This document shows, one piece after another, positions 4,031 to 43,337 of a DNA stretch of 64,000 bases. Within the stretch, counting starts at the first letter, position 1; each line of letters starts with the position of its first letter. The stretch lies in NCBI GenBank assembly GCA_951406725.2, contig OX597829.1, forward strand, positions 51,212,001 through 51,276,000. Direction: 5' to 3'. The stretch is from Octopus vulgaris (taxonomy: Eukaryota). The notes beneath the pieces were generated by a model. It worked only from the letters and a program-made list of their open reading frames with translations, was not told the origin of the DNA and made no database searches. Position numbers and translations under genes: made by a program.

Positions 4031-4064
<34 letters not shown>

Positions 4065-4610
4065 TTGATGCAGTACCAGACAGTGGCTCTCATGGCTTCT
4101 GATCTTAACTGATTGGAAGTGTTATCATGTACGTTGTTTTGTCTTGGTATAAAAGATGGGCTACAGCAAATATTTTGCTCAATACCACAGATTTGCTTGT
4201 CAGTTGTTTGACCTTAACCAGTTGACCATGTCCCTTGGTGGCTGACGATATGTGCATCTCTGATCACGAGCAGAAGTAGTGGGGGAGCATCATAGCCATG
4301 TGTTGAGAGGGATTCTTTGGGGTTTGAATAATTCACCTCTGGAAACATGGGTGTTTCGTTCAACATCCTTAAACAACCCTTATTCAGGGACCTTTTGAGC
4401 GGGTTGGGTTACTCGACCAGAAGAAAATTCAAAGGTCATGTGCTGTTTATCTTGATATGAGATCACCATGTCGCGCACATATGGTTGTGATGCATGTGCC
4501 TGGTGTACCCTTAACAGACGGGTAGTCATGATGGGTATATTGGGCTTCGTATATTTTACCCCAGTGTCACTTTGATGGCATGCACTGCTCTCTCACTCAA
4601 TAATAATAAT
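4065..4610 (+). mobile_element. ~545-bp non-coding retro-element with (AAT)n tail, copy 1
   Basis: Near-identical reverse complement at 5581-6140 and a partial copy at 9385-9540. Embedded in (AAT)n on both sides. Strand inferred from the tail. Confidence 0.75.
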
Positions 4611-5580: not shown

Positions 5581-6138
5581 TATTGAGTGAGAGAGCAGTG
5601 CATGCCATCAAAGTGACACTGGGGTAAAATATACGAAGCCCAATATACCCATCATGACTACCCGTCTGATAAGGGTACACCAGGCACATGCATCACAACC
5701 ATATGTTTGCGATATGGTGATCTCATATCAAGATAAACAGCACATGACCTTGCAGGTGGGGCCCAGTTAGAATTTTCTTCAGGTTGAGTAGCCCATCCAG
5801 CTCAAAAGGTCCCTGATTAAGGGTTGTTTAAGGATGTTGAACGAAACACCCATGTTTCCAGGGGTGAATTATTCAAACCCTAAAGAATTCCCCTCGATAC
5901 ATGGCTATGATGCTCCCCCACTACTTCTGCTCATGATCAGAGATGCACATATCGTCAGCCACTAAGGGACATGCTCAAATGGTTAAGGTCAAACAACTGA
6001 CAAGCAAATCTGTGGTATTGAGCAGAATATTTGCTGTAGCCCATCTTTTATACCAAGATAAAACAATGTACATGATAACACTTCCAATCAGTTAAGATCA
6101 GAAGCCATGAGAGCCATTGCCTGGTACTGCATCAGGGC

Positions 6139-6140
<2 letters not shown>
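5581..6140 (-). mobile_element. ~545-bp non-coding retro-element with (AAT)n tail, copy 2 (inverted)
   Basis: Reverse complement of 4065-4610, flanked by (ATT)n on both sides. Confidence 0.75.
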
Positions 6141-6199
<59 letters not shown>

Positions 6200-15383: not shown

Positions 15384-15920
15384 CATCATCATCATCATCG
15401 TTTAGCGTCCGTTTTCCATGCTAGCACGGGTTGGATGGTTCGACTGGGGTCTGGGAAGCCAGGAGGCTGCATCAGGCTCCAGTCTGATCTGGCAGTGTTT
15501 CTACAGCTGGATGCCCTTCCTAACGCCAACCACTCCGTGAGTGTAGTGGGTGCTTTTTACGTGCCACTGGCACAGGTGCCAGGGGAGTCTGGCAGCAGCC
15601 ACAATCGGATTGGTGCTTTTTACGTGCCACCAGCATGGAAGCCAGTCAAGGCGGCGCTGGCATCAGCCACGTTCGGATGGTGCTTTTTACGTGCCACCAG
15701 CACAGAAGCCAGTCTAGGCGGTGCTGGCATCAGCCACGTTCGGATGGTGCTTTTTACGTGCCACCAGCACAGAAGCCAGTCAAGGCGGCGCTGGCATCGG
15801 CCACGTTCGGATGGTGCTTTTTACGTGCCACCGGCACAGGTATCACAACTACTATTTCCATTTGATATTTATTTCGATGTTGATGTACTTGACTCAATAG
15901 GTCTCCTCAAGCACAGCAGG
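15384..15920 (-). mobile_element. RTE 3' UTR copy with about 5 internal tandem units
   Basis: (CAT)n on the + strand, GGATGCCCTTCC motif, and repeated GGTGCTTTTTACGTGCCACC units. Confidence 0.8.
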
Positions 15921-17954: not shown

Positions 17955-18565
17955 TCATCATCGTTTAACGTCCGCTTTCCATGCTAGCATGGGTTGGACG
18001 GTTCAACTGGGGTCTGGGGAGCCCGAAGGCTGCAGATCTGGCAGTGTTTCTACAGCTTGATGCCCTTCCTAACACCAACCACTCCGTGAGTGTAGTGGGT
18101 GCTTTTTTTACGTGCCACCGACACAGGTGCCAGACGAGGCTGGCAAACGGTCACGCACGGGTGGTGTTTTTTACGTGCCACCAGCACGGAGGCCAGGCGA
18201 GGCTGGCACAGCCACGTTTGGATGGTGTTTGTTACGTGCCCACAGCACGGAGGCCAGTCGATGCGGTACTGGCTACGGCCACGTTCGGATGGTGTTTGTT
18301 ACGTGCCCACAGCACGGAGGCCAGTCGATGCGGTACTGGCTACGGCCACGTTCGGATGGTGTTTGTTACGTGCCCACAGCACGGAGGCCAGTCGATGCGG
18401 TACTGGCTACGGCCACGTTCGGATGGTGTTTGTTACGTGCCCACAGCACGGAGGCCAGTCGATGCGGTACTGGCTACGGCCACGTTCGGATGGTGTTTGT
18501 TACGTGCCCACAGCATGGAGGCCAGTCGATGCGGTACTGGCTACGGCCACGTTCGGATGGTTTTC
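17955..18565 (-). mobile_element. RTE 3' UTR copy with an expanded tandem array
   Basis: RTE tail followed by the tandem units described in the next feature. Confidence 0.8.
18241..18561. repeat. 67-bp minisatellite, about 4.8 near-perfect copies
   Basis: Unit CACAGCACGGAGGCCAGTCGATGCGGTACTGGCTACGGCCACGTTCGGATGGTGTTTGTTACGTGCC starts at 18241, 18308, 18375, 18442 and 18509. Confidence 0.95.
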
Positions 18566-19932
18566 TTATGTTAAACTCACATTACTGAGGAAATGGCAGT
18601 GGATCAGGAGATTTGCTGTAATTTATAAAACCACTGTCTTCCACACATACAGGTTTGTCCCTTCAGGTGCCAGTGCCACATAAAAGGCTCCTGTGCCAGT
18701 GCTGCATGAACGCACCCATGCCGATGGCACTTACAAAGCACCAGACACACTCTGTAAAGCGGTTGGTGTTAGGAAGAGCATCCAGCCATAGAAACCATGC
18801 CACAGCAGAGTGGAGTCTGGTGCAGCTCCATGTCAAGCTGTCCAACCCATGCCAGCATGGAAAGCAGATGTTAAATGATTATGATGATGATGATGATGAT
18901 GATGATCACAGCAGGAATTAATATTGAGGATGGTAGAAACATCTGGCCCAGAGTCACAAAGTCTGATTCAGCAAAGCTCATGCTGTCGTGTGAGAGTTTT
19001 CTTTTCGATTACATTGGTGGGCAACTCTGGTGTCATGGTGGAAGGGGCCAAAGCCCCTACAGAGCTGCTCCACCACCTGATGGAACATTGAAGATTACAT
19101 TCAGAAATGGAGTAAAACAGCACACTCAGTACACAGGTGTTTTGTTTTATTTTATTTATGCGCCCTTTTCAAGCCTAGACAGGCTCATGGCCCAGTTTCT
19201 GTGGCTGCAACGTGTCCCCCCCACCCACCCCAGCTGGACATTACCCAAAATGCAGGAAGAAAGAGTACAACAAGGGTCACCACCACCCCCTGCTGGAGCT
19301 TCATGGAGCTTTAGGTGTTTTCGCTCAATAAACACACATAACGCCCAGTCTGGGAATCGAAGCTGCAATCCTCCGACCGCGAGTCCGCTGCCCTAACCAT
19401 TGGACCATTGCACCTCCACACACAGGTGTTTACCCTAAATAATTACGCAACAGACGACACACTAAAATAACATAAGCATTAACAATATAAAATTCATCAT
19501 CATCTTTATCATCATTTTGCCTCCACTCTCCATGCTGGCATAGGTTAAGCAGAGTAACAAGATCTGACACATCAGCAGACCACATCATGTTCTACTGTAT
19601 TAGTTCTGGCTTGGTTTCTCTAGCTGGATGCCCTTTTTAGTGCCAACCACTTTACACAGTATACTGGATGCTCCTTTTGTGGTGCCAGCACTTGCAAAGT
19701 CATCTTAACTCTTTTGATATCAACCCACCTAAACTGCCCCAGGTTCTATGACGTAAACTTACTGTTCTAAAGTGGTCTAAATTACAATTTTCCATCAAAA
19801 TTTCCATGTTAATTTGCCCCAAACCCCAGCTTAATAACGAGAAAGTTATTTGATGAAATACTTCAAAACTTAATTGAAATAAAGGCAGCAAATGTTGAGC
19901 AAAATATGGTAACAAAAGGGTTAAAGCTTGCA

Positions 19933-26819: not shown

Positions 26820-27110
26820 TATCATGGCTGATGCCAGCGCCGCCTCGACTGGCTTCCGTGCCGGTGGCACGTAAAATGCACCAATCCGACTGTGGCCGTT
26901 GCCAGCCTCACCTGGCACCTGTGCAGGTGGCATGTAAAAAGCACCCTCTACACTCCCAGAATGGTTGGTGTTAGGAAGGGCATCCAGCTGTAGAAACATT
27001 GCCAGATCAGACTGGAGCCTTGTGCAGCCTTCTGGCTTCCCAGATCCCCAGTCGAACCATCCAACCCATGCTAGCATGGAGAACGGACGTTAAACGATGA
27101 TGATGATGAT
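26820..27110 (+). mobile_element. RTE 3' UTR copy
   Basis: GTGCCGGTGGCACGTAAAA units, GGAAGGGCATCCAGCTGTAG motif and a (GAT)n tail. Confidence 0.8.
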
Positions 27111-27247
27111 TATGTATGTATGTATGTATATATGTGTGTATATATGTATGTATGTATATATATGTGTGTATATATGTGATGTGTGTAGGAGATCAAAAGT
27201 GTACATACGCTACTATATGTATATATAAAAAGACAAAACAAAACAAA

Positions 27248-27486
27248 AATGTGGAACAAGAACATAACAGGCAACAACAAAACATCCGGACAGGAAAAAA
27301 CAAGGACGGATCATTCAGAATCGGGGCCGGCCAGATTGGAGCAGTCTCAAGTGTAACCAGCCGAAACTGCAGGGATTATCTGGAATTCGACTGATGATAG
27401 AAGGCTCTGAATGACCCGTCCATTATTTTTTTCCTAACCTTCTTTGTCTTGTCTAACTGTCCGGATGTTACGTTCTTGTTCCATTT
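27248..27486. mobile_element. Inverted-repeat element with hammerhead core motifs in its loop, copy 1
   Basis: Arm segments GGAACAAGAAC, AACATCCGGACAG and GACGGATCATTCAGA pair with TCTGAATGACCCGTC, CTGTCCGGATGTT and GTTCTTGTTCC. Homologous to 42862-43259. Confidence 0.65.
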
Positions 27487-27543
27487 CTTAGTTTTGTACC
27501 CATGCTAGCATGGAAAACAGACGCTAAACGATGATGATGATGA

Positions 27544-27592
<49 letters not shown>

Positions 27593-28129
27593 CATGGCCA
27601 TGTTGATAAACTTGCTTTACAACCACACGGTTGTGGAACACCTTGAGCAAGTACATTTTATTATGGCTTCAGGATTTGTGGAAATACACTGACAAAGCCT
27701 TGTCAGTGTATTTGAAAGGCAATAATTGTGTGGAAGCCTGTCCAAAAGCACCAACCGATCATGGCCATTTGCCAGCCTGCGCTGGCTCCTGTGCCGGTGG
27801 CATGTAAAAAACACCCACTACACTCATGGAGTGGTTGGCGTTAGGAAGGGCATCTAGCTATAGAAACAATGCCAAATCAGACTGGGCCTGATGCAGCCTC
27901 CATGGCTTACCAGACCCCGGTCGAACCGTCCAACTCATGCTAGCATGGAAAACGGACGTTAAATGATGATGATGATGATATTTACTGACGCACACACACG
28001 CACACACAGTCATACTGACCATTTTCTCTTTATTCCTACATCCGGTCACTTACTTCAAAACTGTAATCACACATGATTGTTAGTGATTTTTTTTTTTTCC
28101 TCCTTCATCTTGTACATCCCTGTTTCTTG

Positions 28130-42827: not shown

Positions 42828-42861
42828 CTGACCGGCCATATATATATATGTATGTATGTAT

Positions 42862-43060
42862 AAAAATACAAACTGGGACAAGAACGCAAAACATTTAGGA
42901 GACGATACAAAAAGCACGGACGGGACATTCGAAGCCTTCAATCTTCAGTCAAGAACCGGATCATCCTCGCAATTTCAGCTGATTAATCTTGATTTTATAT
43001 ATATATATATATATAATATATATATATATATATAATCTTGACTACCGAGTAATGTAACAT

Positions 43061-43115
<55 letters not shown>

Positions 43116-43253
43116 TATTAGTAGAAGACAGCTGCTTACCACCACACAGCCACTCCTGCGCCTTGTTTCGTTGTATCGTCCATCTGGATGTTTTGTTGTC
43201 CCTTTTTTGTATCACCTAACTGTCTGGATGTTTTGCGTTCTTGTCCCATTTTG

Positions 43254-43259
<6 letters not shown>
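42862..43259. mobile_element. Inverted-repeat element with hammerhead core motifs, copy 2, disrupted by (TA)n
   Basis: AAAATACAAACTGGGACAAGAACGCAAAACAT pairs with ATGTTTTGCGTTCTTGTCCCATTTTGTATTTT. 42918-42992 is the reverse-complement homologue of 27347-27421. Confidence 0.6.
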
Positions 43260-43309
<50 letters not shown>

Positions 43310-43337
43310 CGGCGTGCGTTCACTTTAGTCTCTTATA

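Follow-up and report, generated by a model that had tools for sequence, protein, structure and literature searches.

We assign a probability of about 0.82 to the following reading of the motif at position 27341 of the window, by which we mean the whole analyzed stretch of 64,000 nucleotides of Octopus vulgaris DNA: the locus is a truncated and mismatched copy of a high-copy Penelope-like repeat, and the intact members of this repeat form a predicted self-cleaving hammerhead ribozyme with the order cut site, GAAA, CUGANGA. An earlier note on this sequence had proposed a hammerhead core whose blocks follow a pseudoknotted, non-circular order; this central claim was upheld.

All blocks of the motif were found with the letters and at the positions given there, namely GCAG (27341-27344), UC (27345-27346), UCAAGU (27347-27352), GAAA (27363-27366), CUGC (27367-27370), AUUCGA (27385-27390) and CUGAUGA (27391-27397), and the block order at this locus is UH, GAAA, CUGANGA. 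The mismatch named as a weak point of stem I is present as well. The parts of the window copy, as assigned in our analysis, are listed in Table 1.

Table 1. Parts of the repeat copy at 27341 and of its neighbors and relatives in the window (window positions)
Feature	Position	Strand	Basis or remark
5'-truncated copy of the 3' end of the same element, in the inverted orientation known from Penelope-like elements	27238..27319	-	Self-BLAST
Subfamily A repeat copy, 5'-truncated, without the P4 5' strand; hairpin P5 reduced to its last GG	27323..27497	+	
Stem II 10.x strand, G10.1 = 27325	27325..27330	+	Partner 27357-27362; one C-A mismatch
Helix J 5' strand (equals the stem I-II interaction helix of type SGC)	27331..27338	+	Partner 27376-27383; 7/8 pairs
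GA, predicted non-bulged strand of a k-turn	27339..27340	+	General k-turn consensus
Stem III 16.x strand, last base U16.1	27341..27345	+	5/5 pairs; covariation
C17 and predicted cleavage site, between 27346 and 27347	27346..27347	+	Analogy to the hammerhead core; pile-up of subfamily B 5' ends
Stem I 1.x strand	27347..27352	+	Partner 27385-27390; one A-C mismatch, one G-U
Stem II 11.x strand, C11.1 = 27362	27357..27362	+	Separated from stem I by the short linker
G12-A13-A14-A15.1 and stem III 15.x strand	27363..27370	+	
3-nt bulge and GA, predicted bulged strand of a k-turn	27371..27375	+	GA constant, bulge letters variable among subfamilies
Helix J 3' strand	27376..27383	+	
Stem I 2.x strand and CUGAUGA core (C3-A9)	27385..27397	+	
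P4 3' strand, immediately after A9	27398..27413	+	Upstream partner of the family missing in this copy
Young subfamily B copy beginning exactly at the predicted cleavage site, adjoining (TA)n	42858..42992	-	

Within the 64-kb window, 27341 was the only site matching a relaxed descriptor, but the same descriptor gave 0.13 matches per shuffled window (60 shuffles), and a strict descriptor with a 5-bp stem I did not pick up the site. The locus by itself is not beyond chance. A scan of the window against Rfam returned 72 matches up to E = 5, none of them a hammerhead and all of them microsatellite hairpins. Since stems I, II and J contain mismatches and P4a and P5 are lost, the window copy is probably weak or dead.

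The homologue described at 42933-42992 is real. However, it is a minus-strand copy that starts precisely at the predicted cut, so that the UH block is absent. Further along, the plus strand carries the 3' end and tail of a related element at 43163-43330, divergent from the copy at 42858-42992. Microsatellites of the types (TA)n, (ATG)n and (CT)n are dense in the window, as are short interspersed repeats (e.g. at 26825-27110 and 27769-27979), and the element copy at 27323 sits amid them. The window also contains an inverted repeat pair (4031-4433 and 5767-6169; 403 nt, 93% complementary, 1,333 nt apart) and two arrays of a 67-nt tandem unit (15544-15904 and 18156-18583).

In the 2.8-Gb genome a core pattern gave 14,323 matches compared to 176 for its reversed control. 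A second core pattern, whose matches overlap this set, gave 3,377 compared to 33. The motif family is far beyond chance. The subfamilies found by these searches are here named A (which includes the window copy), B, C, D, E, F and G, in addition to minor groups. Subfamily B was represented by 1,617 exact matches of a 35-mer. A pattern with a pyrimidine before CUGANGA yielded 2,252 matches against 1,744 in the control, mostly chance hits and an unrelated reverse-transcriptase-like repeat, and was set aside; it supplied the seed of subfamily E. Three matches to a subfamily A-C pattern in a metagenome scan lacked the stems in every case and were dismissed as chance. Two more repeat families, with hammerhead motifs of ordinary type I order beside (TA)n, were seen in L262, L272 and L277 around 1400-1600, often as inverted pairs.

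Roughly 100 nt separate the motif from the 3' end of the repeat. The repeat is usually flanked by (TA)n, occurs as head-to-tail units and as truncated copies in inverted orientation, and has a short tail. Partial tandems, inverted 5'-truncated copies, a short 3' tail and (TA)n targets are traits of Penelope-like elements and the Naiad clade, and the accessible part of PMC8557442 lists the same traits as hallmarks of Penelope-like elements. The subfamily B unit is 769 nt in size and non-coding, the longest open frame having 117 codons; units of subfamilies D and G are approximately 820-930 nt. The subfamilies other than B and F are likely to be non-coding as well, and the non-coding subfamilies are likely moved in trans by some Penelope-like enzyme.

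An intact core together with perfect stems I to III was present in 25/47 copies of subfamily B, 12/19 of B2, 9/17 of D and 5/7 of G, and in 6/24 copies of C, 2/31 of A, 2/8 of F and 1/28 of E. A look through public sequencing runs listed 20 carriers under four organism labels, all of them contigs and none with certainty an RNA run. Among the 40 of 52 subfamily B variants listed for four public runs with four organism labels, GAAA, UC and CUGAAGA were free of changes; the variants affected the linker, the bulge, helices J, P4 and P5, and a few positions within the stems.

Covariation was analyzed in nine subfamily majorities, each built from 7-47 near-complete copies, with pairwise identities of 49-90% among the eight compared. 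The seed groups C2, F2, H and I (2-3 copies each) were excluded from the counts. D2 is a mixed group with a P4/P5 register misplaced by the script, and was omitted from both the folding and the five-lineage test. Across the nine subfamilies stems I and III paired in 45/45 and 27/27 positions, both with many double changes. A stem II with its 10.x strand upstream of the cut site paired in 45/45, all Watson-Crick and with G10.1-C11.1 fixed, helix J in 43/45, hairpin P5 in 32/36, and P4, formed by the strand after A9 and a far-upstream strand, in 45/54. The corresponding label-permuted means were 28.6, 15.4, 27.2, 21.9, 20.4 and 38.7, in the same order. When each lineage was represented by a single subfamily (A, C, D, E and F), every helix ranked first or second of 120 permutations. 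All these permutation values overstate independence, because the subfamilies are related and best fits decided the registers chosen for stem II, J, P4 and P5. In a best-of-window control for stem II, the own upstream window gave 5/5 pairs in all nine subfamilies and the windows of other families a mean of 3.15 of 5. In 3/9 subfamilies a U-U takes the place of the first P4 pair.

The earlier assignment of stems I and III and the predicted position of the cut site agree with this covariation, as does the short linker between stems I and II, which is 2-7 nt long. According to the same data the order of the motif is 5'-[P4a][hairpin P5][stem II 10.x][helix J][stem III 16.x]-UH-cut-[stem I 1.x]-linker-[stem II 11.x]-GAAA-[stem III 15.x]-bulge-[helix J][stem I 2.x]-CUGANGA-[P4b]-3'. 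Single-strand folding of eight subfamilies recovered P4 in six (not in D and F), P5 in five and the upstream stem II in three, with a stem I probability of at most 0.54, by a program that cannot form crossing helices.

The hammerhead core (C3 U4 G5 A6 N7 G8 A9, G12 A13 A14 A15.1, U16.1 and H17) was found in 9/9 majorities, with N7 variable among subfamilies. GAAA and CUGANGA belonged to the patterns that found subfamilies D to G; U16.1 and H17 did not. Outside the search patterns, and yet in all nine, were U16.1, a position 17 that is C, U or A and never G, and the pair G10.1-C11.1, of which C11.1 alone was contained in the pattern giving 3,377 matches.

Where P5 fills the gap between P4 and stem II there are no unpaired bases, which suggests a four-way junction at A9/10.1. 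Judged from sequence, this junction likely stands in place of the backbone link from A9 to G10.1. Stems I and II would then cross the J/III hairpin as a double pseudoknot. The joint of stem III and J deserves a further remark. A k-turn consists of a 3-nt bulge followed by tandem G-A/A-G pairs between two helices. A 3-nt bulge with tandem GA/GA was present at this joint in 6/9 subfamilies (A, B, B2, C, E and F); it was shifted by 2 nt in D and D2 and absent in G and in the coral Naiad. The GA of the bulged strand was itself part of the search pattern giving 14,323 matches. The k-turn or bulge would bend stem III and let helix J reach the outer ends of stems I and II.

If the motif cuts where predicted, truncated genomic copies might be expected to carry a trace of it, and 5' ends of subfamily B copies do pile up next to the site. 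Copies were selected by a word 35 nt downstream of the predicted cut (a 35-mer), and 92 were taken from the first of the 1,617 matches after one duplicate was dropped. At +0 to +12 we counted 5' ends in 25/884 copy-positions, compared to 3/705 at -13 to -1 (P = 1.7e-4) and 11/1,919 at +13 to +34 (P = 4e-6). The best change point is at -4 to 0 relative to the predicted cut. The pile-up spans 13 nt, with only 3/92 ends at exactly +0, and TA microhomology may add junctions at +5 to +9. It is consistent with templates that have their end at the predicted cut and lose a few bases on joining. A replication with 68 copies of other subfamilies gave 8/825 against 14/3,465 (P = 0.054; with +0 to +10, P = 0.13); these came from 100 matches listed of the 3,377-match search, 30 being dropped as unassignable and two as subfamily B. 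We regard the pile-up as an indirect genomic footprint of the predicted cutting, with weak replication in the other subfamilies.

The same observations could be explained by a conserved fold that is not cleaved in vivo and that serves reverse transcriptase recognition or packaging, the pile-up then resulting from template structure or TA microhomology. That 56/92 copies read through the site and that replication was weak would suit such a structure, as would the poor in vitro cleavage of minimal Penelope hammerheads reported in the accessible part of PMC4209133. Nevertheless, we consider it improbable, because the catalytic positions and the NUH rule are kept across lineages of approximately 50% identity, 5' ends fall off steeply upstream of the predicted cut, and some of them lie at positions without TA microhomology.

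A plain type SGC hammerhead of 66 nt, with AGCC/GGCU as stem II after a 5-nt insertion behind A9, was the fold originally put forward for 27341, and it has very little probability left. The four AGCC/GGCU pairs do form in the window copy as well as in B and B2, and the competing P4 partner is lost from the window copy. However, this stem paired in only 19/36 positions across the nine majorities (null 18.2) and in 8/20 across five lineages, where 88/120 permutations were as good, and a contiguous stem II register reached 14/36 (null 13.0). In addition, PMC10085705 reports, in the part accessible to us, no insertions of more than 1-2 nt after A9. Covariation among genomic copies, which the earlier note had suggested as a check, thus favored its stems I and III and spoke against its stem II. 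The conserved partner of the strand preceding GAAA lies upstream (27325-27330) and not after A9; the supposed insertion belongs to a strand that pairs far upstream as P4; the 14-nt linker from stem III to stem I resolves into a bulge and helix J; and the full motif extends over approximately 140 nt.

Highly unlikely, too, is the formation of the same helices between neighboring units of a tandem transcript (a strand-swapped dimer): head-to-tail units occur, Penelope and amphibian hammerheads are reported, in the accessible literature, to act in dimers, and stem I is not favored in single-strand folding, but stem III is a stable helix of 4-5 bp extended by J and has no palindromic loop, the units are about 770-930 nt apart, and single SGC RNAs cleave in cis (PMC10085705, accessible part).

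For the double-pseudoknotted motif within one unit we propose the following course. The intact motif would act in cis as a self-cleaving hammerhead on the element RNA, and cutting would turn tandem transcripts into RNA of unit length. Reverse transcription would begin at the 3' end of the element, at a nicked (TA)n site, and would be stopped by the cut 5' end of the RNA. Uncut or re-ligated, possibly circular, templates would lead to read-through and head-to-tail copies, as may be deduced from work on retrozymes.

The link to a named clade comes from subfamily F. According to the accessible part of Craig et al. 2021 (PMC8557442), Naiads are without canonical hammerheads and have (TA)n as insertion sites; in eight of them a 'half core' is separated from its other half by 35-50 nt, and the cephalopod Naiads are described as long inactive. 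Subfamily F and the 3' end of the published Naiad_Obim consensus correspond throughout the predicted ribozyme region (DNA read by eye). In the genomic copy L411 the end of the Naiad frame, the UTR and the motif follow each other continuously. A remnant of the Naiad frame was contiguous with the motif in 2/6 F copies that were extended and in 0/2 F2-type copies. In Naiads the frame upstream of the 3' UTR has GIY-YIG at its N-terminus and reverse transcriptase at its C-terminus; the frame end upstream of the F motif matched Naiad_Obim by eye, and Pfam gave no match on the fragments. Peptide look-ups in the accessible part of the PMC8557442 supplement found nothing, so that the Naiad link rests on DNA read by eye. 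On these sequence matches, subfamily F is probably the 3' UTR of an autonomous octopus Naiad element.

Of the 54 listed Naiad consensus sequences, 32 were surveyed by eye and without computation over their 3'-terminal 360-600 nt. The split form, in which the stem II arm is separated from CUGANGA, was present in 8/32 of these 3' ends: Obim, Ovul, Esco, Amil, Chem-3, Movir-2, Bfor and Plae. Their hosts are two octopuses, a squid, a coral, a hydrozoan, a box jellyfish, a ctenophore and an acanthocephalan. Here, Esco is degenerate, stem I of Bfor has only 2-3 bp, and P4/P5 of Plae are outside the part in view. The order CSG with full stems I, II, III and J was found in 7/32 (Parc, Nbra-1, -2 and -3, Hpol, Hcon and Smim; six nematode hosts and one spider). 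In total, one of the two forms was recognized by eye in 15/32 Naiad ends from six animal phyla, and neither in the other 17/32 within the part viewed. Among the half-core Naiads, six of the seven viewed resolve into complete non-circular hammerheads. Since SGC and CSG are circular permutations of each other, a single non-circular ancestor is the simplest reading. It seems fairly probable that a large part of the Naiads, in at least six phyla, carries active non-circular hammerheads, of the CSG form and of a split SGC form that combines a four-way junction with a bulge or k-turn.

Other structures were seen in the accessible Naiad 3' ends. Naiad-1_Movir and Naiad-4_Chem (PMC8557442 File S5) contain motifs resembling the general twister consensus, and no hammerhead was seen in the parts viewed; some Naiads may swap the ribozyme class. 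Naiad_CGi, Tgra, Pfla-1, Scon and Mmer share conserved, structured-looking elements common to bivalve and hemichordate Naiads.

A GIY-YIG search yielded a candidate for an autonomous partner of the non-coding units, which was rejected: it carries a type-I-like motif and has no similarity to the unit beyond a short tail word. This candidate (L211-L215, e.g. L212:1166-5550) is a young Penelope-like element with many near-identical copies. It has two overlapping frames of about 480 and 781 codons, with reverse transcriptase followed by GIY-YIG, and a type-I-like hammerhead variant near the 3' end. At L041:1640-1670 the A/B tail after (TA)n begins with a word resembling the post-cut word of the L212 element, possibly an enzyme signal common to both, possibly chance.

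The earlier note knew of no description of this topology. However, the order UH, GAAA, CUGANGA equals type SGC of Eckert et al. 2023 (HRIMA-1 and variants), which was validated in vitro (PMC10085705). As far as the accessible text of that work goes, type SGC and type CSG RNAs cleave in vitro. For type SGC, cleavage was shown at the predicted site and four helices were validated, one of them joining the outer ends of stems I and II. SGC was found only in metatranscriptomes and in no genome of a known organism, and the non-circular hammerheads came from anonymous metatranscriptome or metagenome contigs and one bacterial candidate, without a biological setting. The SGC model assumes that CUGANGA is contiguous with the stem II arm. 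The split form breaks this assumption, and current descriptors therefore miss it.

The block order was already known; the setting in animal chromosomes, the link to Naiads and the split form with its four-way junction were not found in the openly available literature that was searched, and they are not mentioned in the accessible parts of a 2026 retrozyme preprint and of PMC13725137. If Naiads do carry active non-circular hammerheads, these would be the first non-circular hammerheads in animal chromosomes, with over ten thousand copies in one genome. It would also explain the 'missing' Naiad hammerhead and supply a predicted ribozyme to elements reported without one. Such hammerheads are placed here at a specific point within an identified clade of retroelements, and sequences from several phyla provide natural covariation. 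This makes it testable whether RNA processing in Naiads resembles that of other Penelope-like elements, and likewise how helix J connects to stem III. Eckert et al. raised the puzzle, within the accessible text (PMC10085705), that the extra helix and stem III can be linked directly despite the large distance between them in the crystal structure, and a k-turn offers a concrete solution.

Compared with known systems, the octopus motif differs from hammerhead types I, II and III, as their cyclic order CUGANGA, GAAA, UH with nested stems was not found in it. With metazoan non-LTR retrozymes (PMC7229834; bioRxiv 10.64898/2026.07.22.740005; both in their accessible parts), which were proposed to be non-autonomous Penelope derivatives, it shares non-coding tandem units with one hammerhead each. 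Retrozymes are approximately 170-400 nt long, carry type I hammerheads and have been shown to form circular RNAs, whereas the octopus units measure about 770-930 nt, carry a non-circular hammerhead and are known from DNA.

The minimal and canonical type I hammerheads in Penelope pseudo-LTRs (Cervera and de la Pena 2014, PMC4209133, accessible part) resemble the octopus motif in their position in the 3' repeat, the fixed pair G10.1-C11.1, the tolerance of extra sequence between A9 and 10.1 and the many covarying families per genome. In contrast, their order is circular, stem III is weak and they depend on dimers, whereas the octopus motif is non-circular with a full stem III. The likeness to Naiads, as described in the accessible part of PMC8557442, is closer: in addition to subfamily F probably being the 3' UTR of an octopus Naiad, (TA)n insertion, partial tandems, inverted truncated copies and the short tail are shared. 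Subfamily B differs from the published Naiads in that it is non-coding and young copies exist.

With type SGC, in the accessible description of PMC10085705, the octopus motif shares the block order, the core nucleotides, stems I to III, the short linker between stems I and II and the helix at their outer ends (J). It differs in two respects. The stem II arm is located upstream, with the P4/P5 four-way junction in its place, so the unbroken block C of SGC is not present, and a bulge or k-turn connects helix J with stem III on both strands. We would therefore expect the octopus motif, with its predicted self-cleavage, to work like SGC but would not file it as a standard member of that type.
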